This document shows, in pieces, positions 40,185 through 56,955 of a DNA stretch of 64,000 nucleotides (position 1 is the stretch's first letter; the number at the start of each line of letters is the position of its first letter). Location of the stretch: contig CBFHTA010000002.1 of assembly GCA_965658655.1 (NCBI GenBank), positions 160,001 to 224,000 of the forward strand, read 5' to 3'. The position numbers and the translations under genes are program-made. Source of the stretch: Candidatus Babelota bacterium (GTDB lineage Bacteria > Babelota > Babeliae > Babelales > CAIQNR01). Below the pieces are notes generated by a model, which searched no databases, had not been told where the DNA came from, and saw only the letters and a list, made by a program, of their open reading frames with translations.

Positions 40185-40976
40185 ATGAAATTAAACGTAT
40201 TCGTCGCATTAACCGGTTTATGCTCACGCCGTAAGGCTATTGAGCTTATTAAGATGGGTGACATTACCGTAAATCATTGGGATGTCCGTAAACCTTCTTA
40301 TGAAATTCAAGAAAAAGATACCATTAGATATAAGAAAAAAGTACTTAAAATAAGTCCCGACAAGCCTGTGTATATTGCTATGAATAAGCCTGTTGGTGTA
40401 GTTACTACCCTTAAAGACACTCATAATAGACCTACCATCGTAAGCCTATTAGACAAAGAAATTAAAACACGGGTATTTCCTATCGGCCGCTTAGATACTC
40501 ACACCACCGGAATTATTCTTTTGACTAACGATGGAGAACTAGCAAATAAGCTTGCGCATCCAAAGTATAAAGTTAAAAAGGTGTATCAAATTACCCTAGA
40601 CAAAGCTGTAAAAGATTCTGATATTGCCAAGATTAAAAAAGGTATTCGTCTTAAAGATGGTTTAATTAAGCTCGACCACGTTGAGCAAAGCTACAATAAA
40701 GCCAAGGTGAAAGTAACGTTACACAGCGGTAGAACACGCATTGTTCGACGAATTTTTGAATCTTTAGGGTATACCCCTCAAAAGCTTGAACGTATTAATT
40801 TTGCCGGTATTTCTAAGCGCGGTTTAGCTCAAGGTGAATGGCGCGATTTACGACGAGTTGAAATTGTTAAACTTAAAAAAGACAATCCTGTAACAATTGA
40901 ACCGGTCAAAAAAGAAACACCACCTAAAAGAACGTATAAACCTAGAGTTAAAAAACGCTCGGTAATTAAAAAATAA
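40185..40976 (+). CDS. rRNA pseudouridine synthase (RsuA/RluB family)
   Basis: S4 domain (CSRRKA), MNKPVGVVTT, IGRLD catalytic Asp, LLTNDG. Confidence 0.93.
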   Translation: MKLNVFVALTGLCSRRKAIELIKMGDITVNHWDVRKPSYEIQEKDTIRYKKKVLKISPDKPVYIAMNKPVGVVTTLKDTHNRPTIVSLLDKEIKTRVFPIGRLDTHTTGIILLTNDGELANKLAHPKYKVKKVYQITLDKAVKDSDIAKIKKGIRLKDGLIKLDHVEQSYNKAKVKVTLHSGRTRIVRRIFESLGYTPQKLERINFAGISKRGLAQGEWRDLRRVEIVKLKKDNPVTIEPVKKETPPKRTYKPRVKKRSVIKK

Positions 40977-40978
40977 GC
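40860..40978 (+). repeat. pseudouridine synthase 3' tail, copied at 42684-42739
   Basis: 40860-40895 = 42684-42719 (36 bp) and 40959-40978 = 42720-42739 (20 bp), both exact. Confidence 0.95.
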
Positions 40979-41002
40979 CCAAAATTAGCTCTGGGAGAGG
41001 TG

Positions 41003-41030
41003 TTGATAAATTCCTAAAAGGAACTATACT
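41003..41030 (+). promoter_or_regulatory. putative sigma70 promoter
   Basis: TTGATA-16 bp-TATACT upstream of 41070. Confidence 0.45.
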
Positions 41031-41069
41031 TATTTCAATTAGAATTTAAGAAAAATGGAGATTGCGATT

Positions 41070-42737
41070 ATGTATAGAAAGTTTCTAGGGTTATTGTTTA
41101 TAAGCATTGCGATTCAACCACTTAATGGAATGCAACAAATAATTCGTGGGACTATTCGTACTGGAACACAGGTTTTGCGTCAACAAGTTGAACGCAAAAT
41201 TCCACATACACCCCAATCACTACCAATACAAACAGCTGCTCTTACTACTGCACGTAATACACAATCTGGAAACAATCACCAAAAAAAATCATGGATTCCT
41301 CATTTTGCTGGTACAACAGGAATTGCCGCAGTATCTGTAGCTTTTGCAAATATACATGATACAGATAAAGAAAATTCATTTTATATAAAAAATATTATTG
41401 CTTTAATAGATCTAGGTATTTTACCGAAAAAAACTAACCGGAAATTAACAGATCAAGTTTTAGATTATTGTTTTGCAAATCACACACTTCATACATTAGA
41501 TCCCAATTTTTTGTATACTGCCATGCTATTTAAAACAAAATATGAAGTTTTATCTCTTAATGAACTCAATTATTACTGTTCTAATTTAGATAAATTAAAA
41601 TTATTACCCTATCAATCCTTTGATGCTTTACTCAATTCTGCTTATTGGCATAAAGAAAAATTCCCCTCTCTAATGGAAGCATTCACTTACTATTATACCA
41701 CTCAACAAATACAAGAATTAGATTTCGCCCTCACTCATCTCACTGAAGAAGAAAAAAAATTCTTCCTTCAAACTGACATCTTCACTCAATCAATAACACC
41801 TACAAGTCAACAGATTAAAACTAGTTTAACACAAGATTTCAAATCTTATAGAAACTATAATCCAGAAGCTGAAATGATCTATCGAAATATTGTTCTTAAT
41901 CATCCTGAAACTAAAGAACTTGCTGTTATGATTAACGATTTTTCTCATCAAAAATACCAAGAAAATAAAATTACTTTCTTTCATGGACAATCTTGGAAAT
42001 GGAATCTTTACGAAACAGTTTTTAACAGACTTACACAATATTTAGGAAAAGAAGTACAAGAAACTTTTAAATTTCCGAGATATACATCACAAATTACCCA
42101 AGAACAAGCAGATAGAATTCATAGAACAGGGGTAAATGAAAAAAATTCTCCTGATAGAGAACACATTCTTTTTACTAATCTTTGTCTTTTTGATAATCGT
42201 GCCCCCTCTAACTCTATGTTTTACTTTTTAAACAACTTTGATCAAAAACATAAAGAAGCATTTGATTTACATTCTACAATTGAAGGAATCGTAGACTTAT
42301 TCAAACAATACGATTTAGAACAAGAAGCTAGAAAAGTTATCTCTAAAAATAAATCTATTTTGAAATCAATTTTTGAACTTCATCAACAAGCGTCACCAGA
42401 ACGAGGCACTATATTAAGTATTTCTATTCCAGAAGCACTCGTCCCCTCTGTTGTTTACAGCACCTATATGGGGCCTGGATACAGAGGAAGCACAGAGGTT
42501 GCAATAGAAGCAGCTAAAAATTGGTCTAAAAAATATAAATATGAAGAATATGTAATTGTACTTGGTCCACTATTTACTTCTGCTCAAAAAGCAAAAGAAG
42601 AAGGAATCGAAATACACTCCTGGAACGTTGCCAACCCCGATCTCATAACAAAACGAGATAAGCTTATTGATAAAATTATTCAAGAAATTGTTAAACTTAA
42701 AAAAGACAATCCTGTAACATCGGTAATTAAAAAATAA
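41070..42737 (+). CDS. exported hypothetical protein whose C-terminus is copied from the upstream pseudouridine synthase
   Basis: Signal peptide MYRKFLGLLFISIAIQPLNG; ends EIVKLKKDNPVTSVIKK*; ORF track starts at 41055. Confidence 0.85.
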   Translation: MYRKFLGLLFISIAIQPLNGMQQIIRGTIRTGTQVLRQQVERKIPHTPQSLPIQTAALTTARNTQSGNNHQKKSWIPHFAGTTGIAAVSVAFANIHDTDKENSFYIKNIIALIDLGILPKKTNRKLTDQVLDYCFANHTLHTLDPNFLYTAMLFKTKYEVLSLNELNYYCSNLDKLKLLPYQSFDALLNSAYWHKEKFPSLMEAFTYYYTTQQIQELDFALTHLTEEEKKFFLQTDIFTQSITPTSQQIKTSLTQDFKSYRNYNPEAEMIYRNIVLNHPETKELAVMINDFSHQKYQENKITFFHGQSWKWNLYETVFNRLTQYLGKEVQETFKFPRYTSQITQEQADRIHRTGVNEKNSPDREHILFTNLCLFDNRAPSNSMFYFLNNFDQKHKEAFDLHSTIEGIVDLFKQYDLEQEARKVISKNKSILKSIFELHQQASPERGTILSISIPEALVPSVVYSTYMGPGYRGSTEVAIEAAKNWSKKYKYEEYVIVLGPLFTSAQKAKEEGIEIHSWNVANPDLITKRDKLIDKIIQEIVKLKKDNPVTSVIKK

Positions 42738-42898
42738 GCTTCGGGTAAAGATTGTCATACTTTCAAATAACTCTATATCTAAATAGTAAAGCAAAACTCA
42801 CACTTTCAAAAAGCAACAAGTCTTGATCATGAAATAAATACCCAAAGCTGAGTTTAAGAAAATAGAACAACTAATACGAGTATTTGCAAAAGATAAGA

Positions 42899-42950
42899 AG
42901 TAAATGAGAATATTTTCAGCACTCTTTTTTAAATCTTTCTCTCATTTACT
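42899..42950. terminator. inverted repeat between convergent genes
   Basis: agtaaatgaga / tctcatttact (11 bp). Confidence 0.35.
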
Positions 42951-43047
42951 GTGCGACAAACCCCACTCAAGAAATTTATTAACTGCCTATGGGGTGGATT
43001 ATAAAAAATATAACGCTAAATATAAAAGTGACGAAAATTAACGTTTC

Positions 43048-45885
43048 TTATTGAATTTCATCCCATGGAATAACTGGTTGCACAAGAGAATAGTTTTCGA
43101 ATAATGGTTCAGAAAGTTTAATACCAAAATACTTAGGTAATGTAACCCGTTCGAGCAATTGTAAGGTGGCAGCAAAATCTTGCTTATTACCTTTACGTGT
43201 TACAATCCATACATCAGGGTCTTTAACCAACATTTCAAGCGTTGCAATAGCACGCACCCATAAACGAATACCATACCATCTCTGAGTATTGCGCTTGACT
43301 GTTTTAACAGTAGATACACTATAAGATTTTTGAGAAACTTGTGACCAAGTATTATGCGATTCTATGAAATCAAATACTTGAGAGCTCGTTAATGCAACGT
43401 TATCAAAGCCATCAGCGTCACATTCCTTTTTGTATTCCATCAAATATTTACGTATTAAGCCACTACGGTTATAATCACAGCCAAATGCATAGAGGCCCCA
43501 ATACGTCTCTGCGGTGTGCCATTGAGTACAATAAGAAACTTCATCTAACGATACCCAATCAACGTCTTTTATACGAACATAATTATTACATAATTGAAGC
43601 GTTCGAGAAAGAAAACGGGGTTTATCTTCAGCCGGTACTCCTGTTTTTTGTAAGCAAACCATTTTATTATTTCTTTCTACCACTGCTACAGGAAGCACCG
43701 AATGTTTTACATTTGGCAAAACAAAGCAACCTTGATCGTATTTCTCCACATATAAAAGGTTACTCAATGCTGCGTACCATTGAGATCGCAAGGCTTTAAA
43801 GAATGGTATAAGTTTTACACTTTCTCGAGATCCCGATTCAAAACTATATAATGGCTTCATATTTGCATGAATGCCAACATCTTTCCACAATTCATTAATC
43901 AATACATTTTCAACATTATATTCAAAAAGATCTGAAACAAATTGAGAGAACTTTACTAATGGATTGAATGAGAATTTCACAAAGGTTTCATAATTTTTAT
44001 CTTGAGCATACTTTTTCACTGCTTCAAACTCTTGGTCAACTTTTTTCTGCGTAATGTCTTGTAAATACAAATCATGCTCTTGTTGAACGCTTTTAACCTC
44101 TTGGAAAAGCTTATCCGTAATGTCTTTATGGGAGAGCGCCACAATATCGCCTTTACTATGCTCTTTAAACAAATTATAAAGAGCTGTACGCAAAAGTGTT
44201 TCACAATAAAGAGCGTCAGCAACTTGTCCTCGAGATTCAGACAATAACTGAAAAAGCTCTGGACCTCGATTAACCAGTGACTTATACAAGCTTTTATCTA
44301 CAAAAAATCCGTCTGGGAAAAGTGCTCGCAGCTGCTGCATCAAGAAATTAATACGCACATTTTCTCGAGAAGAACGAGGATACATACTCAAAAAATCAAC
44401 AAATACTAACTTTTCAATACCAGCTTTTTTACACTTGGTTACCACATCATCCATAAATGATGAATAATACATTGGTAACAATAGACCTTTAGTAAAAAGC
44501 ATCTGTTCCGGATACACCACCTTAAGACCTCGAGAGTGTACACCGTCTAACGGTACTAAACATTTAATATGATGTTGATTTTGTATATCAAAAATAAAAA
44601 GTTGCTCTTCATACTCAAAAGGAATCCATCGAATATTAGACCCAAATAATTTTACGTTTTTTGCATACACATCATACAGACGCATAGGGTTACCTAATGG
44701 CTCTAATAACTTATTCTGAAATCTATCTTGATACGTTTTCGCTTGGTTTTGTACAACAACAGAAAGTTCTTTTTTTTGCGCTTCAAATTCTTTTACACTG
44801 GTTACGTCTACAAATACATGCCCATCTGGTTTGCTCACCCAATGGCTTAATTGCGCCGGCAAATCAAGAATAAAAACATCATCTTGTAGCTGAAACAACG
44901 TACCTCTTTGAGAAGAAGAATTATCAACACGCTCATAATTTTCTATCTGTGAACCATGCCTTGAGTAATTGACTACGTTACCCAAAAGGGTACTTTTACC
45001 TACCCCGTCAACAAAACTACAAAAGATGTAAGCTGTTTTTTTATTATCTCGTGGAGTAAGTGTAGCGGTAAATTGTTTCACAAAATGTTGAGCAGACTCG
45101 GTTACTCTTTGCTCCTGAAATGGCAATACCTCTATAGGATAAGTAATATCGGGTCCCACATACATTTTTTCAATAGGTATGGTAGTGGTCTCTGTTAAGT
45201 GTTTTGCGTAATCAACTGAAAATAAAATATCTTGCGTTGCTAGTACTTCTTGGCCAAAACTTTTCAGTTCTCCTCCATAAAGACGTTCCCAAAATGTTAC
45301 CAGACAATGCAACGTATCCTTTACGTTTCGCTTTTTTATAGTTTCTTCTATTTTATTTCGAGCTTTTAAAACAGCTTCAAAATCTTTACCAAAAGCGTGC
45401 TTCTGGAACAAATAAGCTTTATCATCAAACAATTCCACACGATCAGCGGAAACATGGTCTATCGTTAAAGGCCTGTCTCCAAACCATTGTCGTTGTAGCC
45501 AATTGCAATCTTTTAATAGAAACCCTGTTAAAAATCCAAAAATGTTATGAGCAGGGACAACGCGGCCCTTTTTTGTTTTTAAAGAAATTTCATCGTCAAT
45601 AGGATGAGCATGCATATTTGAATAATAACTTGGTACCCCTTCTTGCTGGTATCCCATAATTACAATACGATCTTGAAGATCAAATCCTGCATCATCCAAA
45701 CGAGACTCTAACTCCTTTAAACAAGCACGTGTTTGGTTCAATAGAAAGGGATGATACTCATGCGTATAACGCCCTTCTGGAGAAAAATCATAGTGAGACA
45801 CAAAGCTTTTAATAAATTTTCTCTGTGGTGATTGTGCAAAAAGAGAGCTCATAAAAACAAGGAGTAATATTATTGTACTTTTCAA
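43048..45885 (-). CDS. large exported protein with P-loop-like motif
   Basis: 945 aa; signal peptide; IFCSFVDGVGKSTLL (Walker A-like), FILDLP (Walker B/G3-like). Confidence 0.75.
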   Translation of the reverse strand: MKSTIILLLVFMSSLFAQSPQRKFIKSFVSHYDFSPEGRYTHEYHPFLLNQTRACLKELESRLDDAGFDLQDRIVIMGYQQEGVPSYYSNMHAHPIDDEISLKTKKGRVVPAHNIFGFLTGFLLKDCNWLQRQWFGDRPLTIDHVSADRVELFDDKAYLFQKHAFGKDFEAVLKARNKIEETIKKRNVKDTLHCLVTFWERLYGGELKSFGQEVLATQDILFSVDYAKHLTETTTIPIEKMYVGPDITYPIEVLPFQEQRVTESAQHFVKQFTATLTPRDNKKTAYIFCSFVDGVGKSTLLGNVVNYSRHGSQIENYERVDNSSSQRGTLFQLQDDVFILDLPAQLSHWVSKPDGHVFVDVTSVKEFEAQKKELSVVVQNQAKTYQDRFQNKLLEPLGNPMRLYDVYAKNVKLFGSNIRWIPFEYEEQLFIFDIQNQHHIKCLVPLDGVHSRGLKVVYPEQMLFTKGLLLPMYYSSFMDDVVTKCKKAGIEKLVFVDFLSMYPRSSRENVRINFLMQQLRALFPDGFFVDKSLYKSLVNRGPELFQLLSESRGQVADALYCETLLRTALYNLFKEHSKGDIVALSHKDITDKLFQEVKSVQQEHDLYLQDITQKKVDQEFEAVKKYAQDKNYETFVKFSFNPLVKFSQFVSDLFEYNVENVLINELWKDVGIHANMKPLYSFESGSRESVKLIPFFKALRSQWYAALSNLLYVEKYDQGCFVLPNVKHSVLPVAVVERNNKMVCLQKTGVPAEDKPRFLSRTLQLCNNYVRIKDVDWVSLDEVSYCTQWHTAETYWGLYAFGCDYNRSGLIRKYLMEYKKECDADGFDNVALTSSQVFDFIESHNTWSQVSQKSYSVSTVKTVKRNTQRWYGIRLWVRAIATLEMLVKDPDVWIVTRKGNKQDFAATLQLLERVTLPKYFGIKLSEPLFENYSLVQPVIPWDEIQ

Positions 45886-46568
45886 ATATCCTCCAGTTTT
45901 CGTTTCTCCGATATAAGCATTTGAAAGATATCTTGATAGCTTTTAAGAGATGCTCCATAACGAGCCTCATATTGAGAACCATGTAAACGCTCATAAACAA
46001 GATAAAGCTCAAACAGTGTTTTTTGTGCTTTTCTTTTATACCCTACAAAATCAGTATGACCACAATTTAACGCAGCATTATTAATACGCTCAATATAATC
46101 TGCCGCAAGTCGATCGAAGTAAAAAGCATAAAAATCATAAAAAGCATATTGAATACCATACTGTTTTGCATAATCAAAAATAGAAATATACCCCTTGGGT
46201 AAAGAACGCTGAAGCAAGTAAGTCACTGCATCTTCTTTTACATCTACAAAAAAACTAGAAAAAAACGCATCATAGACCTGACATTGATCAATAATTTCAC
46301 CTCTATGCTTATGCTCAGAATAAAGATGTTCTGATACAGCAATACAATAATGTGGTTTTTTTATTACTGCTTTAACAAAGAACGGCAATGCTTGCTTGAA
46401 TTCTGAAAGATGCATATCTAAAAACATAGGAATCACCCAAGATGGTTCAATAACATATGCATCTACTTGATCTACAAAAAGATCATAAAGAGACGGTCGA
46501 TCTTGTGTTTGAGCAGGAGTATGCATCATAATTGCACACGCAAGAATGAACGACCACCTCTCTATCAT
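45882..46568 (-). CDS. exported hypothetical protein
   Basis: 228-aa ORF, signal-like N-terminus, 4-bp overlap with the downstream gene. Confidence 0.75.
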   Translation of the reverse strand: MIERWSFILACAIMMHTPAQTQDRPSLYDLFVDQVDAYVIEPSWVIPMFLDMHLSEFKQALPFFVKAVIKKPHYCIAVSEHLYSEHKHRGEIIDQCQVYDAFFSSFFVDVKEDAVTYLLQRSLPKGYISIFDYAKQYGIQYAFYDFYAFYFDRLAADYIERINNAALNCGHTDFVGYKRKAQKTLFELYLVYERLHGSQYEARYGASLKSYQDIFQMLISEKRKLEDI

Positions 46569-46574
46569 GTTAAT

Positions 46575-47639
46575 CTATATTTCTTTTGTAAAAGGAGAGC
46601 CAACTTCATCAAAAATATCTTCTCGTGCCGCATGTTCATTTACACAGAAACTATCTTGTTCTGACCGTAAACGCTCTCTGAACGATTTAATGTATACAGG
46701 AATTTCCGCATACTTAGATGAGTCGTCTAACATTGCCTGTAATTCTGAAGAGAACAGACCAACATGACGATACATATATATCGCAGATGCCTTCATCTGA
46801 ATACTGCATCCAACGTTAAGAGTTTTCACTTTATCTGCTTGATACTCCATGAATGCAATTACACGCGCTAGCTGTTTAACTAAAGCGTCTGCTGTCCAAA
46901 TCATAGATTTTTTTTGGTGCCCTCTATCTTCTTCGTCTGTTGCAAGCGGCAATAACTCTGCTGCTCTTTCTAAATCGTTAAAATAAGAAACTGCTTGTGT
47001 CTGACTCGTAACAAACCAATGAAAATCAGCATCATGATAAAAGTGTTCACCAATTCTCTCTACCTGGTTTCCCCAATAGTTAAAGAGACGAGCAATAGGG
47101 CGAGGAAGCGGCAGCACACCACTAACAACCAAAACACCCATCTGAATAACCGCGTTGTGCCCAATCATCTTACCAGTATTCCAAATATTACGCCCCCAAG
47201 CCTGCAAAAGCGTAGGAGGGGGTGTTGCTTTGGGAGCAGTTGAGTCAATACCAAGCTGCTTATTTATTCGGGATACTTGCTGCATTATTTCTTGGCTAAA
47301 GATACGTGTTAATTCAGTATTTTCTTTAATAAGAGGAATATTCTTATTGTTATCTTGAGTAAGCGGTTTATCAACTACAACAGGAGTATGGAAAGCATAC
47401 CAACCACCAGCAGCAATAACCGCTACTGTTGCGCAATTTATAACCATTCGATCATATCGATTACGAATGAGTTGCTGAGTAATTCTAGCCTTATGTAAAT
47501 CAACTAAGCGTCGATTAATTTTACTAATAGCAGTAGGAAGTTTTTGAATTGCATCTTTTGGTTCAGCAAAACAAGAAGTAAACACCAAAGAAATTAGTGT
47601 AAAATGCGTTATATATCGTTTTAAAGTATTCATGCTCAT
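46575..47639 (-). CDS. exported/membrane hypothetical protein
   Basis: 354-aa ORF, signal peptide plus two hydrophobic segments. Confidence 0.75.
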   Translation of the reverse strand: MSMNTLKRYITHFTLISLVFTSCFAEPKDAIQKLPTAISKINRRLVDLHKARITQQLIRNRYDRMVINCATVAVIAAGGWYAFHTPVVVDKPLTQDNNKNIPLIKENTELTRIFSQEIMQQVSRINKQLGIDSTAPKATPPPTLLQAWGRNIWNTGKMIGHNAVIQMGVLVVSGVLPLPRPIARLFNYWGNQVERIGEHFYHDADFHWFVTSQTQAVSYFNDLERAAELLPLATDEEDRGHQKKSMIWTADALVKQLARVIAFMEYQADKVKTLNVGCSIQMKASAIYMYRHVGLFSSELQAMLDDSSKYAEIPVYIKSFRERLRSEQDSFCVNEHAAREDIFDEVGSPFTKEI

Positions 47640-47647
47640 TTCCCTTA

Positions 47648-48532
47648 TTAATAATTAGGATACGGAGAACCATAAGGATTTGTGTAACTGTTGCCAGAGT
47701 TTTCTCGCTGTACAGTCAACTGCCCTACAGCATCTCTACCCGCAGAAGCTGTATTTGGATCAACCAAGGTTGCCACATGCTCAAAAGCATCACAAGTGCT
47801 ACTCATCATGCGTTTAACACGATCTTTATCAAGAGATGAAATCTGCTTAACATTTTGAGTGTAAGTAACAATTTCTTCTAAGTACGTTTTAAGTTCTTCT
47901 AGATAAAAAGCTATTTCTTCGTAGTATTCTGCATTGTTCTTATTAATTGTGGTCTTATGATAACGATAATATTTTAAATGAGCATTCAAACATTTAATTA
48001 TAAAATTACACTGTGTTTGTATGTGGGTTGCATATTCTTGCCAATGATCATCTAGCATTGCTTCTTCATTGTCGTCTTGATCAATAAGACGCAATCTTTT
48101 CTCTCTGCTTAAGTCCACAACCGTTGTTTGCTTTGTTAAGGGAGAAAGCGATTTCATAATACGTGCACGCCACAGAATTAATTTATTCCATGAAAGCGAC
48201 TCTCCACCATAACGTATAAATTCATAATATCTGCAAAGTCTTCTTGTTGGAACACGAACAATATCAATAGTTCCATTGAAAAATCCTTTGTTTTGTTTTT
48301 CTAATTCAGAAAGAACTACATAGACTCCAAAAATAGAAGCTGCTGCTTTCCCTGTCTCACCTTGCTCTTTAAGAACGTTTATAACAATTCCTGCTGCACC
48401 TAGGCCCATAATATGTTTTGCAAAATCACCTAACTCCGCACCCCCTGCAGGCAGCTGATTAGAACTTGCTACACAAGAAAAAAATAATGTGAAACAAAGA
48501 AAATATGAAAATAATTTATTGGAATAAATCAC
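47648..48532 (-). CDS. exported/membrane hypothetical protein
   Basis: 294-aa ORF, GTG start after ggag, signal peptide. Confidence 0.75.
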   Translation of the reverse strand: MIYSNKLFSYFLCFTLFFSCVASSNQLPAGGAELGDFAKHIMGLGAAGIVINVLKEQGETGKAAASIFGVYVVLSELEKQNKGFFNGTIDIVRVPTRRLCRYYEFIRYGGESLSWNKLILWRARIMKSLSPLTKQTTVVDLSREKRLRLIDQDDNEEAMLDDHWQEYATHIQTQCNFIIKCLNAHLKYYRYHKTTINKNNAEYYEEIAFYLEELKTYLEEIVTYTQNVKQISSLDKDRVKRMMSSTCDAFEHVATLVDPNTASAGRDAVGQLTVQRENSGNSYTNPYGSPYPNY

Positions 48533-48632
48533 GTAGAAATCTCCCTAATACCCTTAAAATACACCATTTCAGATACATTTAGTGTAGCAAAAAGGGCAAA
48601 AAATGCAATCCAAAGCTTGTTTTGGGCTTGTT

Positions 48633-49073: not shown

Positions 49074-49136
49074 TTCTTACTTTCTATCCTATTTAAAATA
49101 TCTTTCCTAATAGGATAACGAGTAAAAGGAAAAACT

Positions 49137-49575
49137 CTAACCTTCTCTATACAAACGAATTTTTTCGCTTTCAACTTCAAGAATAATTTTATTGGGTCTT
49201 TCTTTGTGCAATCGAAACCATGCAGAGATCATGTTCAAAAACTCATTCACCGTTGTTTTGTATGCATTTGGATCTGGATATTCATCAAAATCTGGATCAA
49301 CAAACCATCCAATTAAAACAAAATTACCTTCTTTTTGTTGTTTAAATACTACCTTGTACTTATCAATACTCTTTCTTGCTTCTAATATCTTTTTAACAAC
49401 TTCTTGTCTTGTCCAATCGGAAGGAAAGAATGTAGACCATTTTGGTTCTTTTCCAAACATTCCCCATTTAAACTTATATACACCATTTTTATCTTGAACC
49501 ATTTCTAAAATTTCTATGGGTTGGCCCAAAAACTTTTTATTTTTAAAATTTGTCTTTTTCAAATCATGATGCCAA
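49137..49575 (-). pseudogene. orphan EndoU toxin-tip fragment fused to an immunity-gene C-terminal fragment
   Basis: WHHDLKK...STFFPSDWTRQEVVKKILEARK homologous to ~50270-50516; tail resembles the C-terminus of 49718..50158; no proper 5' end. Confidence 0.75.
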
Positions 49576-49663
49576 GCCGTCTTGGCCCCTCCTTCGCATA
49601 AAGCTTTCGCGCGCGCGGCAAGGCGGAGTTTATCCTGAGCAAAGTCGAAGGGCCGGACACGGC
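49576..49663. mobile_element. GC-rich MITE/REP-like insert
   Basis: GC-rich ~88 bp; imperfect terminal inverted repeats gccgtcttggccc / gggccggacacggc; sits exactly where toxin homology stops. Confidence 0.55.
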
Positions 49664-49717
49664 CATTTTTTTAAAGGAAAACATTCTGAGAGAGAATCAA
49701 CTTTACCCGCTTAGCCC

Positions 49718-50158
49718 CTAATCAAGAACATCTTCTCCAGCAAGATTTTTTGTAGGTGCATCTTCTGCATACACACGAATATTATTATCATCTGATAATT
49801 CAAGAGTAATACGATTCTTATCTTCTCCATAAGCCCATATCCATTGCTTTATTCCATTCAAAAGTTTTTCTTTTGGAATAACAACAGAAGGAGGTTCTTC
49901 GGGTGCATATTCATACCCTATAAGAATATTGTTCCTTTCAAATTCACAGTCAAACATATTCGTTGCAAACGGAGTATTTTTTTTAATTCTCTCAAGCATT
50001 CGAGCTGTTTCTTCAGGATTCCCCACTATACCATCTAAAAACAACTGCATTAAAGTTCCAGCTTTTGTATCTGACCCCTGCCATATGTGATAACAATATT
50101 TTCCTTTTGTTTCACTAGAAACAGGATAAAAAGTCTTTGTACATACCGATTTCTTCAT
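49718..50158 (-). CDS. putative cognate immunity protein
   Basis: 146-aa ORF without signal peptide, 9 bp downstream of the toxin stop; partial homolog within the orphan module. Confidence 0.7.
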   Translation of the reverse strand: MKKSVCTKTFYPVSSETKGKYCYHIWQGSDTKAGTLMQLFLDGIVGNPEETARMLERIKKNTPFATNMFDCEFERNNILIGYEYAPEEPPSVVIPKEKLLNGIKQWIWAYGEDKNRITLELSDDNNIRVYAEDAPTKNLAGEDVLD

Positions 50159-50167
50159 ATTTACCTT

Positions 50168-51733
50168 TTAAAATTCAGGATAAATTGTAATTATATTTTT
50201 TTTATGTTTATCCACTATAAAACTAATTTTAATACCCTCTTTAGTAAAACCAGATCTAATAAATCGCCCACTGTCTTGTTTCACAAAGGGTGCTTTATAT
50301 TTTTCAATATTCTTTCTTGCTTCTAATATCTTTTTAACAACTTCTTGGCGAGTCCAATCAGAAGGGAAAAATGTTGAAGGCTTTGGTCTCTTACCAAACA
50401 TGCTCCACTCAAATTGATAAATTCCGTTCTTACCTTGAACTACATTTAAAATTTCTATAGGATGCCCATGAAACTTTTTATTCTTAAAAATTGTCTTTTT
50501 TAAATCATGATGCCAACCTCCAATAGATCTTTTAACTTCTCCAAACTTAGTGGTGTATGTTTTTATATCTGGCTGAAACAAATGCCTTGGGCGAATGTCT
50601 ATTAACTCTCCTTTGAACTGCATATGCAACAATGCAAGATCTTCTTCTAGTGCAAGCCACTTTGTTGCACTACCTTTTAATGCTGGTACAAGGTTACCAT
50701 GCATTTTAGTAACAGGGTCTTTGGCCTCCATTGCCATTAAATTAAGATATTCACCCATTGTTGGCACAATAATATTAGGTGCACCTTCTACGGCAAAAGA
50801 ATATTCAGATACTTTTTCTGCTGCATCAAGCCATTTGTTTGCATTGTTATATGTATATTTAGAAAATTGCCCGATCGCTCCCATTGCTCTTTCTAACAGC
50901 ACCACTTCAACACCAAATGCTGTTGCGCATCGAATGAAATCATACCGCGGAATAGATCTTACAACCTCTATAACTTCTTCTATCTGCTCTTTATGAGTTA
51001 AAAAACGATTATAAAGTTTTTCGGGATCCATCATTGAATAATAAGAGATAGCACCGCACTCTTTTAGTACATACGCCATTGCACGGGCTGTTTTAACAAT
51101 ACCATGAGCCATTTGCTTTGCTGTTCTTGTAGGGTGCAAGCAAGCATCAACAGTATTAAAAACGCCATCTTTTGCACCATAGGCAACTGCTTTTCCGCAT
51201 TCAAGCAACCCCCAACACACATCGAGCAAGCGACTGGTAAAAAGCACTCCACCCTGCTTATTTGCTTGATGTGCAAGTTCCCCAAGCGAGCCGATTGTAT
51301 CTTGATACTCTTTGTCTACCACAAGATCTGCCGCTTGTGCCTGAATATCTAGAAGCTCTTGATGCAATACATGCTGAAACTCGTTACCTTTGAATTGCTG
51401 ATACTCTTGCCCATTACCATACGTGTTTATAAAGCTTTTTGTTTTTTGAGACAGTGCATAGTTTTTTTTAACTACTTTTGCAGGATCAAAATTCTTAAAC
51501 GCACGCAAACGCCTTTCTTGATGCGCATCTTCAAAGAATTGCCACTCTTCTAGAACATGAACTAAAAGATATTTTTCTTGATACTCAGCACGCCTTTTAG
51601 CACATGCTCGTTCTTCTTTTCTCTGAATCTCCTGTTGCCTTTGTCTTCTTTGCGCTCTTCTTGTTCTTGCTTTTGCAGCTCTCTTTTTTTTTGAGCTGCG
51701 AGAAAACGCAACTGTTGATCTATCTGATCCCAC
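50168..51733 (-). CDS. polymorphic toxin, C-terminal bacterial EndoU nuclease domain (downstream frame of a split gene)
   Basis: RHLF...GGWHHD...KPSTFFPSDW...G..I...ITIYP pattern of bacterial EndoU toxins. Confidence 0.8.
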   Translation of the reverse strand: MGSDRSTVAFSRSSKKKRAAKARTRRAQRRQRQQEIQRKEERACAKRRAEYQEKYLLVHVLEEWQFFEDAHQERRLRAFKNFDPAKVVKKNYALSQKTKSFINTYGNGQEYQQFKGNEFQHVLHQELLDIQAQAADLVVDKEYQDTIGSLGELAHQANKQGGVLFTSRLLDVCWGLLECGKAVAYGAKDGVFNTVDACLHPTRTAKQMAHGIVKTARAMAYVLKECGAISYYSMMDPEKLYNRFLTHKEQIEEVIEVVRSIPRYDFIRCATAFGVEVVLLERAMGAIGQFSKYTYNNANKWLDAAEKVSEYSFAVEGAPNIIVPTMGEYLNLMAMEAKDPVTKMHGNLVPALKGSATKWLALEEDLALLHMQFKGELIDIRPRHLFQPDIKTYTTKFGEVKRSIGGWHHDLKKTIFKNKKFHGHPIEILNVVQGKNGIYQFEWSMFGKRPKPSTFFPSDWTRQEVVKKILEARKNIEKYKAPFVKQDSGRFIRSGFTKEGIKISFIVDKHKKNIITIYPEF

Positions 51734-51900
51734 TTATTGTAAGCACCAGCCATTATGGAAAAAGATACATTTCCCCATTGATTAGAAACATTATCGCTTT
51801 CTTGAGAACCCCAAGGAGTATCAGCCGCAACCCAGTAAGAAAATGTACAAGAGTGTGTTAATAGTAAAAAAATAAAAAGTGAAAATCGCTTAGAATACAC
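51562..51900 (-). CDS. signal-peptide N-terminal part of the toxin gene (upstream frame of the split gene)
   Basis: Signal peptide; overlaps the toxin ORF by 172 bp, with the toxin ORF in the -1 frame; A9 tract at 51684-51692. Confidence 0.65.
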   Translation of the reverse strand: MYSKRFSLFIFLLLTHSCTFSYWVAADTPWGSQESDNVSNQWGNVSFSIMAGAYNKWDQIDQQLRFLAAQKKRELQKQEQEERKEDKGNRRFREKKNEHVLKGVLSIKKNIF

Positions 51901-51901
51901 T

Positions 51902-52414
51902 TCAACCTCCTATCACCCCAAAGCAGTAATTTATCCACTCAAAAGAATAATCTAAAAATTTCACAGCCCAAATAGTACTCACAAATGCTGTTTTTATTAT
52001 ATTGCGTGTTTTGTAAGCAACATAAATAACACCAATGATTTTCCCTACGTCATAGAAAGAAAAGTATTTATTGCCTACACTTTGGTTACAACAATGCGGT
52101 TTACATCCTCTACACCTATAAAAATCTACTTGTGATTTATGTCCATTATGGTCACCATTATGCGCATCAGAATCTTTTGGTTGAACCCTATAATGGCTTT
52201 CATTAGATTTTTCACAAGAATCAAGCTCTGCTGAAACATCAAGTGGCCCATCATCTAAATAGGTATATTGCTCTCCATGGTCATTATACTTATTCATGAA
52301 AACATCTAATGATTCATGATCAGAAGAATCAATCGAGAATAACGATTGCATTGACAGACAAACAAAAACAAGCATCAAGCAAAATCGCCCAGAATGGGCT
52401 TTCAGATAAAACAT
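51902..52414 (-). CDS. exported/membrane hypothetical protein upstream of the toxin
   Basis: 170 aa, signal peptide, CRGC..HCC, C-terminal hydrophobic segments; 1 bp from the next start. Confidence 0.65.
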   Translation of the reverse strand: MFYLKAHSGRFCLMLVFVCLSMQSLFSIDSSDHESLDVFMNKYNDHGEQYTYLDDGPLDVSAELDSCEKSNESHYRVQPKDSDAHNGDHNGHKSQVDFYRCRGCKPHCCNQSVGNKYFSFYDVGKIIGVIYVAYKTRNIIKTAFVSTIWAVKFLDYSFEWINYCFGVIGG

Positions 52415-52526
52415 CGCAGACTCCTCTATAATTAAATCTGCGATATACTACTATGTAAAAAATGAAAAATCAAACCGCCAATACTGTAGTCAAAAGGTGC
52501 AATCCGAGCATTTATTTTTTAATAAC

Positions 52527-52607
52527 CTAGCCCCGCAAAGCTTTACGTAAATATGGTGCTGTTTGGCTTACTTTAGAACGGGCAACTACTTTTGGTTCAC
52601 CCTCTGC
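52527..52607 (-). repeat. diverged copy of uvrA 3' end (last 26 codons plus stop)
   Basis: 72/81 identical to 54391-54471; encodes AEGEPKVVARSKVSQTAPYLRKALRG*. Confidence 0.95.
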
Positions 52608-52650
52608 TCCATGAGCTAATAATAAAGCAACCAAATAGTCACGATCACTT

Positions 52651-54282
52651 TCAATAGCCTTCTGCAATGGGCATTCTTAATTCCATTGTTAAATTTGGAT
52701 TAGCTCCGTACTTTAGCAAAAGTTCACCTATTTCTAAATTTTCGTTATCTAAAGCCCATTGCAAAGGAGTCGATCCATTGTGATCAAAAACATCTACTAT
52801 AGCACCGCGCTCTAATAAAAACTGCACTATTTTTACATTGTCGCTATTTACAGCATGATGCAATGGCATCGCAAAGCCAACCTTAGCATTAATATCAATA
52901 TTTAAACTCAATAAACGATGGATTAAATCTTGATCATTATCTTCAACAGCATTTATCAACAAATTTGCAAAGGATGGAGGAACTAATGCTTCTAAAGATA
53001 TTAATGGGTATCTTTTTTTTAATCTCTCAATAATTTCTAAAAATTCCATAGAAAAAACTTTTTCATCAACCTTAATTTTACGATCAATAGATATCCAAAC
53101 ATGATCAGGGGAAAACTGCCAATCCAATACAGAATCAATACTATTTTTAATTAGAACTTTTACATATATTTTTTTTGATACTAATTCACTCTCTGGTTCT
53201 ATTATTAAAGACATAGCAATAGCACGCCGTTCACTTGAAACCAATTTACCAAAATCTTCAAAACTATTTGCTGATGTGTCAAACAGATAATTTAATAATT
53301 TTAAAGCATTTTGCTCATTACTTTCAAGCGCATAATTTCCTTTAATATAAACTACACCTGGAACATTTGAAACAAGATTCATCCAAGATTGCTTTGCTAA
53401 TTCACTATATCTAGGTACCCGAGGATTTGAATATGTTTCAATAAATGTCTTAAAAGCAGGCAAAACTTCTCTTTTTTTAGAAAGGAGTTCTAAATCTAAT
53501 CTATCTGTTTTCTCGTTGTATAACATAAAATTCACTACAGTCCAAAGCGCATCCTCTCCACAAATCGCCACCTCTTCTTTCCCGTCAAAAGAAGCTCTTA
53601 AATGGCGCATATGCAAAAAATCAAATGTTTTATTTTTTTTACTTATAAGTGTTGCCGCAATTATTTGATCTATATCATTAGTCAAATCACTTAATTCCTG
53701 GTCTGTAAATTGTTGCGGCTCTATTTCAACACCAACCCCTTTTGCATAAGCCGCCAAATCCTTACCATCACGACTTATCAAATACGCAAATGCAGCTATT
53801 ATTCTAGCAGTTTCTTCTTGAGGAACTTTTTTCATTAATTCAATAATTTCTTGAAAAACTTGGTTAAACTTTTTTTTCTTACCCTTTGCATTTTTATGAT
53901 TTTTTTTATATTCATCAAACCATTTTTGTGCTGTTTCTTCAGTTAAATAATCTGATATTGAATTTTCTAAAATTGCTTTATTTAATTCCCCTAACAACAA
54001 ATGACTTGGAGAATTCATAAAATTATATTTTTTTTGAGTTAAACGTAATTCACCATCAAGAACATGTCCCATTTTTTGTATTAAATGTGCAACTTCACTT
54101 TCACCTTCATATGCTTTAACTACATCGCCACTTTCTAAAAATGCCGCTCCCACAACAGGAGATGCTGCCTCTTTACCTTGTTGTTTAAATGGCGTCATTG
54201 TGCCTTTAAGCCATGAAGGATCCATCGCCTGCACGGACGTAATACTAAAACTCAATAATAAAATAAATATTTTGCGAACCAC
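52651..54282 (-). CDS. exported Cys/His-core protein with C-terminal ankyrin repeats (3' end frameshifted)
   Basis: GTG 54282 after aggagg; signal peptide ending VQA; AICGEDALW core; PLHHAV...RGA, TPLQWAL...YGA; a further ankyrin repeat continues in the +1 frame to 52527. Confidence 0.85.
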   Translation of the reverse strand: MVRKIFILLLSFSITSVQAMDPSWLKGTMTPFKQQGKEAASPVVGAAFLESGDVVKAYEGESEVAHLIQKMGHVLDGELRLTQKKYNFMNSPSHLLLGELNKAILENSISDYLTEETAQKWFDEYKKNHKNAKGKKKKFNQVFQEIIELMKKVPQEETARIIAAFAYLISRDGKDLAAYAKGVGVEIEPQQFTDQELSDLTNDIDQIIAATLISKKNKTFDFLHMRHLRASFDGKEEVAICGEDALWTVVNFMLYNEKTDRLDLELLSKKREVLPAFKTFIETYSNPRVPRYSELAKQSWMNLVSNVPGVVYIKGNYALESNEQNALKLLNYLFDTSANSFEDFGKLVSSERRAIAMSLIIEPESELVSKKIYVKVLIKNSIDSVLDWQFSPDHVWISIDRKIKVDEKVFSMEFLEIIERLKKRYPLISLEALVPPSFANLLINAVEDNDQDLIHRLLSLNIDINAKVGFAMPLHHAVNSDNVKIVQFLLERGAIVDVFDHNGSTPLQWALDNENLEIGELLLKYGANPNLTMELRMPIAEGY

Positions 54283-54390
54283 TTTAAACCTCCTTTTTAA
54301 ACTATACTTTTTAAGCATACTCTATATGAGAAGGCATAATAAAGAGTTTTACATCCTAAAGTCATTTGTAAGCTTAAATCCTTAAAACCC

Positions 54391-56955
54391 TTAAGCTCGT
54401 AATGCTTTACGTAAATATGGTGCTGTTTGACTTACTTTTGAACGGGCAACTACTTTTGGTTCACCTTCTGCAACCACAGTTCCACCCTCTGCTCCACCTT
54501 CTGGTCCCATATCAATAATATAATCTGCTGTTTTCAAAACATCTAAATTATGTTCAATAACAAGAACAGAATTACCTTTGGCAACCAGTCGATTTAATAC
54601 TTTGAGCAATTTCTCAATATCGCTTGAGTGCAAACCTGTTGTTGGCTCATCAAGAACATATAATGTTCGAGTCCCTCGTTTTGCTAACTCATTAACGAGT
54701 TTAATACGTTGAGCCTCTCCACCAGAAAGCGTTGTTGAAGATTGAGCTAACTTTAGATAATCAAGACCAACGTCACACAACAACTGCAAACGTTTAATGA
54801 TATTCTTATGTGCAGCAAAAAATTTCATTGCTTCTACGGCTGTCATGTCGAGAACGTCGGCAATGTTCTTTCTTTTATACGTAATTTGCAATGTCTCTTT
54901 ATTGTAGCGCCGCCCCTTACAGGTTTTACAGATCATGGTAACATCGGCCAAAAAGTGCATTTCAACAGTTATGGTTCCATTACCCGAACAATCAAAACAA
55001 CGCCCAACCGGTCTGTTGAAACTGAATCGCCCTGCTTTATAACCACGCACTTGGCTCTCAGGCAACGCTGCAAATAAATTTCTAATTTCGTCAAAAATAC
55101 CTAGATAGGTTGCGGGGTTAGACCGAGAGGATCGACCGATTGGCTTTTGATCAATAACAACTAAAGCATTAACTTGATCACCTCCAACTAAATCTTTTGT
55201 TGGAACTACTCGACGACGATTACCAGTTAGCTCTTGTTCAACAGCCGGAACTAATTCTTCTAACACCAATGAACTTTTACCCGAACCAGAAACTCCTGAT
55301 ATGCCACACAGTACCCCTAACGGAAAACGCACAGTAATATCTTTTAAGTTGTTTTTTTTCGCATGCTTTAAAATTAAATATGCATACGGTGTTCTTCTAA
55401 ACTCAGGTAACTCAATTTTTTTCTTACCACTTAAATAAGCACCAGTCAGAGAATTAGTATCTTTTGTAATTTGATTAGGAGTTCCAATAGCCGTAATGGT
55501 TCCACCATGCACACCAGCCTCTGGACCCATATCAATAAGATAGTCGGCCGCTTTCATAGTATCTTCGTCATGCTCAACAACTACAACTGTGTTGCCTTGA
55601 TCACGTAAACTTTTAAGTGTTTTAATTAAACGGTCGTTGTCTCGTTGATGCAAACCAATACTTGGTTCATCAAGAATATAAAGTACACCACTAAGCGCAG
55701 AACCAATTTGTGTAGCCAATCGAATACGTTGCCCTTCCCCACCAGAAAGTGTTCGTGCCGTTCTATTAAGTGTTAAGTAAGGCAACCCAACATCATCTAA
55801 GAACTGTAATCTTCGGGTAATCTCATTGAGTAACGCCTTAGCTATTTTTTTTGATGTTGCATCTATTTTTATCTTCTTAAACCATTCAAGCGCTTCTTTA
55901 ATAGGCATTTCAGAAATTTGATAAATATTTTTTTTATCAACCTCTACCGCCAAAGCAAATTTGTTTAATCGTTGACCTTTACATTCTTCACACCCTAAGC
56001 GTGTTGCATATTTTTTAAAAAAATCTGGATATTTGGTTTTCCAATAATCTTTATCCCCTTTATCCCACGGCCATTTATTGGTTATCCCTAATCCAGAACA
56101 ACTTTTACATGCACCTACCGGAGAATTAAAAGAAAAAAAACGCGGCTCAAGTTCAGGAAACGCATTACTACATTTAAGACACATGCGCTGGGAAGCATAC
56201 AACTGCTCTTTTTTGCCCGAAACTACCTTAACCAGACCGTCTGAAAGCTGCTCTGCTTTTTCTACCGCCTCTTGAATTCTAGGGCGCTCTTCCTCTTCAA
56301 CCGTTAACGCATCAACTAATACATCAATAGTATGTTTATACGTTTTGCCTAATTTCAGAGCATCTATCTCTTCTACGCTTGAAAATTTGTATTGTTTACC
56401 ATCTATCTCAAATCTATAAAACCCCTGCTGAAAATGATGTTTTAAATCATTTTTAAACTCACCCTTTTGCTCACGAACAATCGGTGCACTAATAACTACC
56501 GACCTATCCTTAAAGAGCGCAAGAATATGATGAGCCATACTTTCTGGAGATTGCGCTCCTACCTTAATAGCACAATCAGGACAATGGGCAACCCCAATAC
56601 GAGCAAAAAGCACCCGTAAGTAATCGTAAATTTCTGTAATAGTTCCAACAGTAGATCGAGGATTTGCCCCAACTGTTTTTTGCTCAATCGCAATGGCTGG
56701 ACACAAACCTTCTATTTGATCAACGTCTGGTTTACGTGCAATACCCAAAAATTGTCGGGCGTAGGCAGACAGCGATTCGGTATACCGACGTTTACCTTCG
56801 GTATATAAAATATCTAAAGCCAAAGAACTTTTCCCCGATCCAGATGGACCAGTAATAACAGTAAACGCTTCTTTTGGAATCTCTACAGAAACGTTTTTAA
56901 GGTTATGTTCACGCGCTCCAGTAACCTTAATCCACGAACGATGTTTCTTCGCCAT
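54391..56955 (-). CDS. uvrA: excinuclease ABC subunit A
   Basis: GAREHNLKN, two GxSGSGKSS Walker A motifs, two LSGGE signatures, zinc-binding CxxC pairs. Confidence 0.98.
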   Translation of the reverse strand: MAKKHRSWIKVTGAREHNLKNVSVEIPKEAFTVITGPSGSGKSSLALDILYTEGKRRYTESLSAYARQFLGIARKPDVDQIEGLCPAIAIEQKTVGANPRSTVGTITEIYDYLRVLFARIGVAHCPDCAIKVGAQSPESMAHHILALFKDRSVVISAPIVREQKGEFKNDLKHHFQQGFYRFEIDGKQYKFSSVEEIDALKLGKTYKHTIDVLVDALTVEEEERPRIQEAVEKAEQLSDGLVKVVSGKKEQLYASQRMCLKCSNAFPELEPRFFSFNSPVGACKSCSGLGITNKWPWDKGDKDYWKTKYPDFFKKYATRLGCEECKGQRLNKFALAVEVDKKNIYQISEMPIKEALEWFKKIKIDATSKKIAKALLNEITRRLQFLDDVGLPYLTLNRTARTLSGGEGQRIRLATQIGSALSGVLYILDEPSIGLHQRDNDRLIKTLKSLRDQGNTVVVVEHDEDTMKAADYLIDMGPEAGVHGGTITAIGTPNQITKDTNSLTGAYLSGKKKIELPEFRRTPYAYLILKHAKKNNLKDITVRFPLGVLCGISGVSGSGKSSLVLEELVPAVEQELTGNRRRVVPTKDLVGGDQVNALVVIDQKPIGRSSRSNPATYLGIFDEIRNLFAALPESQVRGYKAGRFSFNRPVGRCFDCSGNGTITVEMHFLADVTMICKTCKGRRYNKETLQITYKRKNIADVLDMTAVEAMKFFAAHKNIIKRLQLLCDVGLDYLKLAQSSTTLSGGEAQRIKLVNELAKRGTRTLYVLDEPTTGLHSSDIEKLLKVLNRLVAKGNSVLVIEHNLDVLKTADYIIDMGPEGGAEGGTVVAEGEPKVVARSKVSQTAPYLRKALRA

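Follow-up and report, generated by a model that had tools for sequence, protein, structure and literature searches.

By which route do host-dependent bacteria whose reduced genomes have neither insertion sequences nor integrases gain the many secreted-protein and toxin genes by which they differ from their closest relatives? This route is poorly documented, and the question is raised by a stretch of 64,000 nucleotides (nt) of the plankton metagenome-assembled genome G000 (contig C2, positions 160001-224000; hereafter the window, to which coordinates without a contig refer). Here, the gene of an RluB-like pseudouridine synthase and uvrA are each followed by an orphan gene and then by a second copy of the core gene's own tail. 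A preliminary description of the window took both cases as traces of a systematic route of gene acquisition, in which incoming DNA recombines within the 3' end of a conserved gene and joins by microhomology on its other side. We find that comparable arrangements are present at eight loci of G000 and consider additive integration the best explanation (probability of roughly 0.6), i.e., one homologous exchange within the end of a core gene combined with one microhomology joint, either of the single-crossover (Campbell) type or of the type known as homology-facilitated illegitimate recombination (HFIR).

The G000 assembly comprises 928,713 bp in 4 contigs with 37% G+C and is 95% complete. The DNA of the window is present in two marine plankton metagenome runs (X1 and X2) of one study. 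We treat the source organism as uncultured, probably host-dependent and, according to one weak match, Dependentiae-like: the RluB-like protein has its nearest named relative, at 47% identity, in a Candidatus Dependentiae genome. The genomes of the order-level relatives all measure 0.7-1.5 Mb. As comparison genomes we used G001, an independent assembly from the same genus (RluB 81% and UvrA 91% identical to G000) of which a 414-kb sample was surveyed for repeats, and a 240-kb sample of G004, a genome from another genus. Signal-peptide-like N-termini were throughout called by eye, without a predictor.

The RluB locus

The first core gene encodes the RluB-like pseudouridine synthase of 263 amino acids (aa) (40185..40976, plus strand; Pfam PF00849, PseudoU_synth_2, 8.3e-24, and S4). 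According to the repeat comparison, its final 39 codons plus 2 nt (40860..40978, plus strand) constitute a tail unit that returns in a shortened form at 42684..42739 on the same strand. This second copy is composed of two pieces with 100% identity to the first: 36 nt (42684-42719) equal 40860-40895, and 20 nt (42720-42739), stop codon TAA included, equal 40959-40978, while the 63 internal nt between them (40896-40958) are omitted. Orphan 1 (41055..42737, plus strand) is an open reading frame (ORF) of 560 aa with a signal-peptide-like N-terminus and a conserved C-terminal domain (approximately residues 270-550), which closes in frame with the tail copy as '...EIVKLKKDNPVTSVIKK*'.

Not all of the shared end is borrowed. 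Several members of the orphan 1 family end in '...RDALIDEIIxxxxxLKK'; the 'EIVKLKK' of orphan 1 thus belongs natively to this family, and its likeness to the 'VEIVKLKK' of RluB is due to chance. At this position the RluB orthologue of G001, which has a full-length tail, reads 'VEVVKMMRENAKT'. Judged from these sequences, the exchange would have fallen within a chance similarity of 7 codons between the '...LKK' family end and the 'EIVKLKK' of RluB, and the part borrowed by orphan 1 would be 'DNPVT' and 'SVIKK' with the stop codon, about 10 residues. The first 7 codons of the tail copy overlap the native C-terminal helix of orphan 1; in the model of the domain (pLDDT 90.5) this helix spans model residues 244-267 and takes in 'EIVKLKK', and the residue block of the putatively borrowed end has a mean pLDDT of 53.

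Orphan 1 has no Pfam match. Its C-terminal domain is common to 85 distant representatives with at most 38% identity, and the invariant residues are H310, W316, D396, G451, Y468 and A513. The sole closer relative in G000 is a paralogue with 28% identity, and a search of a protein atlas gave no usable match. Foldseek found nothing at E <= 0.001 for the models of the whole protein and of the domain. The domain model yielded 50 weak rows in VIA-align (best Z 4.7, none with Z >= 5), among them exotoxin A (Z 4.3, 132 aligned, rmsd 5.7), diphtheria toxin, ParT, an Xre-RES complex, a PE-like toxin and two CNFy entries. Several ADP-ribosyltransferase toxins recur among these weak rows (Z 3.8-4.3), with no clear solved relative. 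The VIA-align rows for the whole-protein model were discarded as generic helical matches to its low-confidence N-terminal part.

The Logan contigs of X1 break at the 36-nt repeat (40000-40889, 40866-42713 and 42690-44100, with depths of 9.5, 10.5 and 9.8), and unitigs cannot phase the junctions across it. All four junctions of this locus are present in the X1 contigs at equal depth and are therefore real; three of them are listed among the X2 contigs. A further X1 contig matches the window up to 40892, 3 nt short of the end of the 36-nt repeat, and continues with 255 nt of unrelated sequence; it could represent a related strain with another arrangement at the repeat. A joint of 40152 to 54499 with a side of 21 nt is too short to mean anything. 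The idea that the 36-nt stretch of RluB was itself overwritten by orphan sequence was rejected: it differs from G001 at 13/36 positions compared to 165/753 elsewhere, which is not significant (Fisher p = 0.06; 83 of 754 windows are equally diverged).

The uvrA locus

The second core gene, uvrA (54391..56955, minus strand), encodes 854 aa with the Pfam domains UvrA_inter and ABC_tran and is 91% identical to its G001 orthologue. Its last 26 codons and stop (54391..54471, minus strand) recur at 52527..52607 on the same strand. Across these 81 nt the copies have 9 differences, 8 of them in third positions and only 1 changing an amino acid, and the stop codon is kept, TAA having become TAG. The synonymous states of the second copy are GAG, TCT, AGC, GCT, TTG and CGG. 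Other measures of the same repeat are a BLAST core of 74 nt at 93% and a repeat-finder match of 101 nt at 82%, and the genome search reports the second copy as a UvrA match of 25 residues with 100% identity.

Orphan 2 as assembled (52651..54318, minus strand) encodes 555 aa, with a signal-peptide-like N-terminus, a family-specific domain and C-terminal ankyrin repeats (Pfam Ank families). Its ORF stops at 52651-52653, 44 nt before the uvrA copy and in a different frame. Three-frame translation and alignment to the homologues P0006 and P0007 uncover an out-of-frame continuation (52527..52676, minus strand): the frame of the uvrA copy reads '...ECPLQKAIESDRDYLVALLLAHGAEGEPKVVARSKVSQTAPYLRKALRG*', with the last ankyrin repeat running into the UvrA tail, and a frame change at approximately 52672-52680 parts these two elements from the rest of orphan 2. 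Since the last ankyrin repeat continues in the frame of the tail, orphan 2 and the uvrA tail were once a fusion, which they are not in the present sequence. A Logan contig of X2 covers 51866-52694, including the tail copy and the frame change, with 0 differences; the frame change is thus not peculiar to this assembly. X1 has no listed contigs over 50773-54174, a gap from which we draw no conclusion.

The joint itself can be placed with the help of the homologues. P0006 (68% identity, 647 aa; on a 5.1-kb contig) and P0007 (49%, 633 aa; on a 126-kb contig) extend about 35 residues beyond '...LLLxHGAD', whereas orphan 2 tracks them up to '...LLLAHGA' and then switches to the UvrA sequence 'EGEPKVV...'. 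As the homologues run on past this point, the newcomer was cut at its joint with the UvrA tail, about 35 residues short of its relatives. The ankyrin '...HGA' meets the UvrA 'AEG', and the only DNA shared at this joint is GCAGA.

The differences between the two uvrA tails are not randomly placed. In a simulation over 84 nt, the joint codon included, the probability of so few amino-acid changes under random placement was 4e-4. The first copy differs from the second at 9 positions and from G001 at 18, and the second copy differs from G001 at 24. Decay in place should not spare amino acids, and the pattern of the uvrA copy looks unlike such decay. A copy kept by selection within the ankyrin protein should not change five times faster than the own tail of uvrA; besides, the copy no longer lies in frame. 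These substitutions are most simply explained if both copies diverged as working UvrA ends in two lineages.

A paralogue of the ankyrin orphan (31-34% identity) lies at approximately 35055-36434 on the minus strand of the window, just downstream of mutS (36725-39262, same strand); no copy of the mutS tail was detected near it. Two further paralogues are found on C1 (approximately 48893-50629 and 315865-317247).

These two loci modify the preliminary description, according to which both orphans end in a fused tail of their housekeeping gene that supplies the stop codon. In the RluB case the in-frame fusion holds, and the displaced tail provides the last 10 or so residues and the TAA, but not 'EIVKLKK', which is native to the orphan family. 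In the uvrA case the repeat is confirmed, but the fusion does not hold in the present sequence, the ORF being out of frame and stopping 44 nt short.

Recurrence across the genome

Local repeats in the whole of G000 are strongly biased in orientation, with 405 direct versus 4 inverted repeats, and a codon-shuffled genome gives 0 at an equal threshold. The isolated direct-repeat pairs number 45, which we assigned by inspection to 8 insertion-type loci, 3 pairs within true tandem duplications and 34 others. Most of the latter link corresponding positions in adjacent paralogues, and tRNA genes and terminator-like hairpins are among the remainder. The recurrence that the preliminary description expected from a genome-wide repeat comparison is thus borne out by six loci beyond RluB and uvrA.

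At the insertion-type loci one or more unrelated genes lie between direct repeats of 37-320 nt that derive from the tail or the head of a neighbouring core gene: besides RluB and uvrA, these are dprA, rpsT/ftsI, the head of dnaE, the head of an FKBP gene, and the tails of a P-loop kinase-like gene and of a 237-aa gene. The restriction to 3' ends that the preliminary description had implied does not hold, as the heads of dnaE and of the FKBP gene are duplicated too. At six of the eight loci a repeat boundary falls within about 25 nt of the start or stop of the core gene; the exceptions are the dnaE fragment, which is internal, and the dprA unit, which extends 65-117 nt beyond the stop. The copies have diverged at seven of the eight. 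The inserts measure 0.3-2.5 kb and consist of one or two genes, without mobility genes. The longest word common to any two of the repeat units is 6-11 nt long and A/T-rich; there is no shared core.

The dprA locus (gene at C2:45950-47050) is the most elaborate, since the tail with its 3' flank is present in three copies: t1 (46813-47167), t2 (47791-48110, 86%) and the frameshifted t3 (48485-48716, 83%). Between these tails lie a 122-aa ORF and an unrelated 130-aa ORF, both with signal-peptide-like starts, and the array is followed by rpmF. When t1 and t2 are compared, 2 differences fall in approximately the first 150 nt and 11 in the last 45 nt. Of these 11 sites, 8 have in G001 the state of the displaced copy and 2 that of the functional gene. 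Because G001 sides with the displaced copy, it is the working gene that seems to carry the deviant, foreign-looking end (last 15 codons), which fits displacement and not duplication in place. The substitution patterns of uvrA and dprA are both those of alleles with separate histories in different lineages, and neither fits decay in place.

In the case of rpsT/ftsI, 72-nt copies (92%) lie at C1 516506 and 517412 (region 516506-517482). The unit covers the rpsT stop, a terminator hairpin and the last codons of a convergent PBP/ftsI-like gene; the rpsT hairpin thereby sits within the coding tail of this convergent gene. The cargo consists of an Ntox37 toxin (5.7e-15) together with a 97-aa ORF, whose stop codon is the copied one. 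Three loci are situated on C4: the dnaE head (50 nt, 94%), repeated upstream of a 693-aa ORF with a signal-peptide-like start; the FKBP head (82 nt, 79%), repeated beyond a GNAT gene; and the tail of the P-loop kinase-like gene (49 nt, 94%), with 294 nt between the copies. Finally, the tail of the 237-aa gene (C2:91812-92525) is repeated after a 69-aa ORF. To call such cargo effectors, as the preliminary description did, is a guess prompted by the signal-peptide-like starts, the ankyrin repeats and the Ntox37 toxin of one insert.

True tandem duplications were classed apart. At C1:478496-480145 the head of a DJ-1-like gene (479177-479278) is joined to the lysS tail (479289-479333) between two 205-aa paralogues with signal-peptide-like starts, and on C2 a 79-nt piece of the tail of a convergent gene follows a run of three paralogues. 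Two other candidates were dismissed: the pair at C2 12188/14209 is not a core-gene end but a remnant of another member of the orphan 1 family, and the 30-nt pair at C1 48237/54949 is a terminator-like hairpin.

The window also contains an EndoU polymorphic-toxin locus (49137..51733, minus strand; Pfam EndoU; 241-nt repeat, 78%) with ORFs of 521 aa (the toxin), 146 aa and 141 aa. The 146-aa ORF has no family match and is, by its position, the putative immunity gene. Over its first 86 residues the 141-aa ORF has 71% identity to toxin residues 411-496 (EndoU domain; blastp), after which the sequence changes; its end is similar, as judged by eye, to the C-terminal portion of the 146-aa ORF. This ORF thus has the appearance of a toxin tip that was displaced and is now fused to the remnant of an immunity gene. 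The EndoU locus is an ordinary displaced toxin tip, and its topology is that of the core-gene loci. At two contig joins of G000 (C1 end/C2 start and C2 end/C4 start) the contig ends have a tandem-repeat gene family in common, which probably broke the assembly.

Comparison with related genomes

G001 keeps the interval from uvrA to RluB in the order of G000, and in this syntenic interval orphan 1 (for which the statement concerns the syntenic site only), orphan 2 and the whole EndoU block are absent. The gap between RluB and the next conserved gene is 526 nt in G001 versus 2076 nt in G000, and the gap at the site of orphan 2 is 304 nt versus approximately 1915 nt. Within about 50 nt after the second uvrA tail, sequence homologous to G001 (upstream of the next gene) resumes. 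Orphan 2 is not found elsewhere in G001 at E <= 1e-20, and a search of genome contigs gave no relative of it. The empty sites in relatives that the preliminary description had called for are therefore found in part: both orphans are missing from the syntenic sites of G001, but its RluB site holds another ORF, unrelated and about 130 aa long, with a signal-peptide-like start. By eye, a copy of a dispersed palindromic element fills the G001 gap downstream of uvrA.

Two other sites are informative. At rpsT/ftsI, G001 has direct repeats of 87 nt (91%; C46:1160-2440) around a 328-aa ORF that is unrelated to the G000 cargo, and its breakpoint lies further into the ftsI tail than that of G000. Different cargo and a different breakpoint indicate that the duplications in both genomes are separate events at one site. 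At dprA, G001 has dprA, one 124-aa ORF and rpmF, without repeats; this would be the arrangement of a donor.

In the 414-kb sample of G001 we counted 117 direct and 13 inverted local repeats. Many of its intergenic repeat pairs were rejected as insertion scars, being copies of the dispersed palindromic element or terminator hairpins. This element is seen, for example, at C2:9635-9678 and C1:78200-78480 of G001, and one 10-mer occurs 30 times in the sample versus 4 times in the whole of G000.

Enzymes of recombination and uptake

G000 encodes RecA (1.8e-126), DprA (9.6e-70) and a predicted ComEC-like protein (partial match, 2.3e-22), so the competence genes that the preliminary description proposed to look for are present besides RecA. 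Its statement that no integrase or transposase is nearby extends to the whole assembly for the families searched: there are 0 resolvase, 0 rve and 0 DDE_Tnp_1 matches, other transposase families being outside the search. Dispersed repeats resembling insertion sequences were not found in the whole of G000. The duplications, with their variable length of 37-320 nt, are unlike the short, fixed target duplication of transposons. Two tyrosine recombinases are encoded in the assembly (C2:108488 and C1:519236; ORFs of 304 and 311 aa), neither of them in the window; by their size they are presumably XerC/D, and they are far from the eight loci except for one chance neighbour of ftsI.

A proposed model of additive integration

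A model has to account for the observed repeats with their recurrence and sharp boundaries, for the absence of the cargo from the congener's sites, for the truncation of the ankyrin protein at its joint and for the lack of the mobile-element families searched. We propose that the donor would be a relative in which the accessory gene adjoins the same core gene, so that the DNA would bring the cargo together with a copy of the core-gene end. Entry would require one RecA-type homologous exchange inside the core-gene end, plus a single illegitimate joint where a few bases happen to be alike. Either the fragment would circularize at the microhomology and integrate by a single crossover (Campbell integration or insertion-duplication), or a linear fragment would be anchored by homology and its far end joined within the resident tail (HFIR). 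Both routes would lead to the same product, i.e., the core gene, the cargo and a second core-gene end. The core gene would remain intact and the resident end would be displaced downstream; where the joint falls inside the coding region of the cargo, the latter would read into the displaced tail and take its stop. A boundary at the end of the gene is expected because homology would stop there if the donor has a different neighbour. Only insertions that rebuild the core gene would survive, and the full end would therefore always stay on the core gene. Repeated entries at one site would build arrays such as that of dprA. We infer the foreign origin of the DNA, its uptake by competence and this order of events from the patterns described above.

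Additive integration fits best because the cargo differs between G000 and G001 at the same site, because arrays exist, and because of the boundaries and the substitution patterns. The HFIR or Campbell topology of the preliminary description thus finds its support in the recurrence, the absence from G001, the truncation and the substitutions, but no donor or circle has been seen with it.

Several observations weigh against this model. In addition to the donor and the circle, an empty allele within the population has not been seen. A word-indexed search of 5.8 billion proteins for close homologues of orphan 1 returned only orphan 1 itself. Among the species genomes searched there is no close copy, none of 15 family genomes besides G000 having one closer than 34%. 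All 7 uvrA changes that G001 clearly polarises fall on the displaced copy, which is uneven for sister alleles. In the RluB case the gapped copy is the downstream one; a pure crossover would place the exchange in the 20-nt segment, which is too short for RecA, or would need a later in-frame deletion. Neither boundary of the dnaE fragment is at the gene start. The true tandem duplications are another route to gene-end fragments in G000. In the 240-kb sample of G004 we counted 17 direct and 2 inverted repeats, none of which duplicates a core-gene end. The pattern may be confined to the genus of G000 and G001, although this negative carries little weight, as only about 2 cases are expected at the density of G000.

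Alternative explanations

A part of these difficulties would be solved by short-patch templated repair, in which a break at the end of a cargo gene that was already present, with no foreign DNA involved, is patched by copying the neighbouring core-gene end through microhomology and template switches. The lack of a donor, the 63-nt gap and 20-nt segment of the RluB copy, and the internal piece of dnaE would fit such repair better than they fit additive integration: the RluB copy is patchy (36 nt, a skip of 63 nt, 20 nt) with all pieces 100% identical, and the dnaE piece comprises 50 nt between two arbitrary boundaries. Also the preponderance of direct over inverted local repeats fits slippage or template switching on one strand. 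Yet, templated repair leaves unexplained why the boundary coincides with the core gene's end at six loci, why different cargo separates three dprA tails of 190-320 nt, why the uvrA differences are biased to third positions, why the functional end of dprA is the deviant copy, and why the cargo is missing from the G001 sites. We regard it as improbable.

Slightly less probable still is a tandem duplication in place, reaching from the core-gene end through the cargo by unequal exchange at microhomology, after which the second cargo was lost or diverged. G000 does make such duplications, as the lysS/DJ-1 locus on C1 and the three-paralogue locus on C2 demonstrate. At RluB and uvrA, in contrast, the similarity ends a few bases from the stop of the core gene, and no second cargo copy or remnant follows. 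The conserved sequence syntenic with G001 that resumes after the uvrA copy represents the ancestral neighbour. Moreover, the cargo genes between the dprA tails are mutually unrelated, as are those of G000 and G001 at rpsT/ftsI, which duplication in place does not account for.

A third explanation is very unlikely: an integrase supplied in trans (from a phage, a plasmid or a lost element) would integrate the DNA site-specifically at att sites in gene ends, with the replacement end carried along. The topology of intact gene, insert and displaced end does resemble prophages and islands in gene 3' ends, and the genome has its two tyrosine recombinases, but these are distant apart from the chance neighbour of ftsI and are taken as XerC/D. 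An integrase would further have to cope with eight repeat units that have no common core, with breakpoints that differ between G000 and G001 at rpsT/ftsI, with inserts of one or two genes devoid of mobility genes, and with the use of heads as well as tails. An artefact of metagenome assembly at short repeats, conceivable for a 4-contig plankton genome whose Logan contigs break at the 36-nt repeat, has a negligible probability, as the X1 and X2 contigs carry the junctions (all four RluB junctions at equal depth in X1, three listed in X2, and the uvrA tail copy with its frame change in X2 with 0 differences), collapsed or chimeric joins do not make the diverged copies of seven loci, and the independently assembled G001 has the same architecture.

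Additive integration can be carried one step further. Core-gene ends in this Dependentiae-like genus might serve as universal, enzyme-free attachment sites for cassettes that circulate without an integrase. RecA recombination between the two copies of a core-gene end would excise the enclosed cargo as a circle, which a relative would take up through its competence machinery; a single crossover would then return the circle to the same core gene. We consider this extension speculative and rather unlikely. If true, secreted proteins and toxin-immunity pairs would circulate in genomes that have lost classical mobile elements, and chimeric C-termini would offer a steady supply of new protein ends.

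Independent of this extension, the loci would represent the readable footprint of one route of gene gain, in which the homology of a conserved neighbour is combined with a microhomology joint. The footprint includes copies that are dated, arrays, and events that took place independently at one site in two species, and the loci show how new genes come by borrowed stops and C-termini. Any genome can be screened for this footprint by looking for core-gene ends that recur on the same strand at a distance of 0.3-5 kb, and such screens could yield rates of integrase-free gene gain.

Relation to known systems

Prophages and islands in the 3' ends of genes do not disrupt the core gene, of which a displaced partial copy lies beyond the insert, and they need an integrase and a fixed att core. 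The loci of G000, in contrast, have no integrase at the inserts and no att core, and their inserts are only 0.3-2.5 kb long. In the minimal mobile elements of Neisseria, cassettes are swapped between conserved flanking genes by transformation, with homology on both sides and, as far as is known, without duplication. The likeness to these elements consists of different cargo between the same neighbours, without mobility genes, at rpsT/ftsI, RluB, FKBP and dprA when G000 and G001 are compared. Islands of the integrase type have been described (PMC2717098). Repeats, mostly shorter than 30 bp, border 10-18% of the small variable segments of E. coli, S. aureus and S. pyogenes (PMC2884548).

Insertion-duplication by a single crossover yields the same topology as here: the target stays whole, the insert is added and the homologous segment is directly repeated. 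Among HFIR candidates in E. coli, 56 of 60 clones turned out to have integrated a circle by a single crossover, and sequencing of 14 showed duplications of 109-950 bp of the homologous gene end (PMC3240628). Compared with these laboratory events with plasmids, the repeats in G000 are shorter (37-320 nt), and they have arisen naturally at housekeeping genes of an uncultured bacterium with a small genome, with no circle observed. HFIR in natural transformation (Acinetobacter, S. pneumoniae, P. stutzeri) likewise combines one homologous anchor with a joint at a microhomology of 3-10 bp; the presence of RecA and uptake genes in G000 and the joint of orphan 2 at the shared GCAGA are similar. Classical HFIR usually deletes about as much resident DNA as is inserted (PMC3240628), whereas the resident DNA is duplicated here.

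Comparable in organization are the displaced ends of rhs genes, polymorphic toxins and type VI secretion system (T6SS) modules, where part of the conserved gene likewise arrives with the incoming module, the previous end is pushed downstream and arrays accumulate. For rhs C-termini, displacement has been modelled by an episomal circle and a single crossover (PMC2935791), and the displacement of T6SS effector-immunity modules has been attributed to HFIR (PMC5361080). The triple tail of dprA is the same kind of array. In those systems the conserved gene is the toxin itself and its tip is swapped, whereas in G000 the anchor is an unrelated housekeeping gene (RluB, uvrA, dprA, ftsI, dnaE, FKBP) and it is the newcomer that receives a chimeric end. 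A limited literature search found no description of this for Dependentiae, which does not show that it is unpublished. In summary, the topology has already been described for the displacement of rhs and T6SS toxin tips and for laboratory insertion-duplication; what distinguishes the loci of G000 is the use of housekeeping genes as anchors, at their heads as well as their tails, in a genome where no classical mobile-element enzymes were found.

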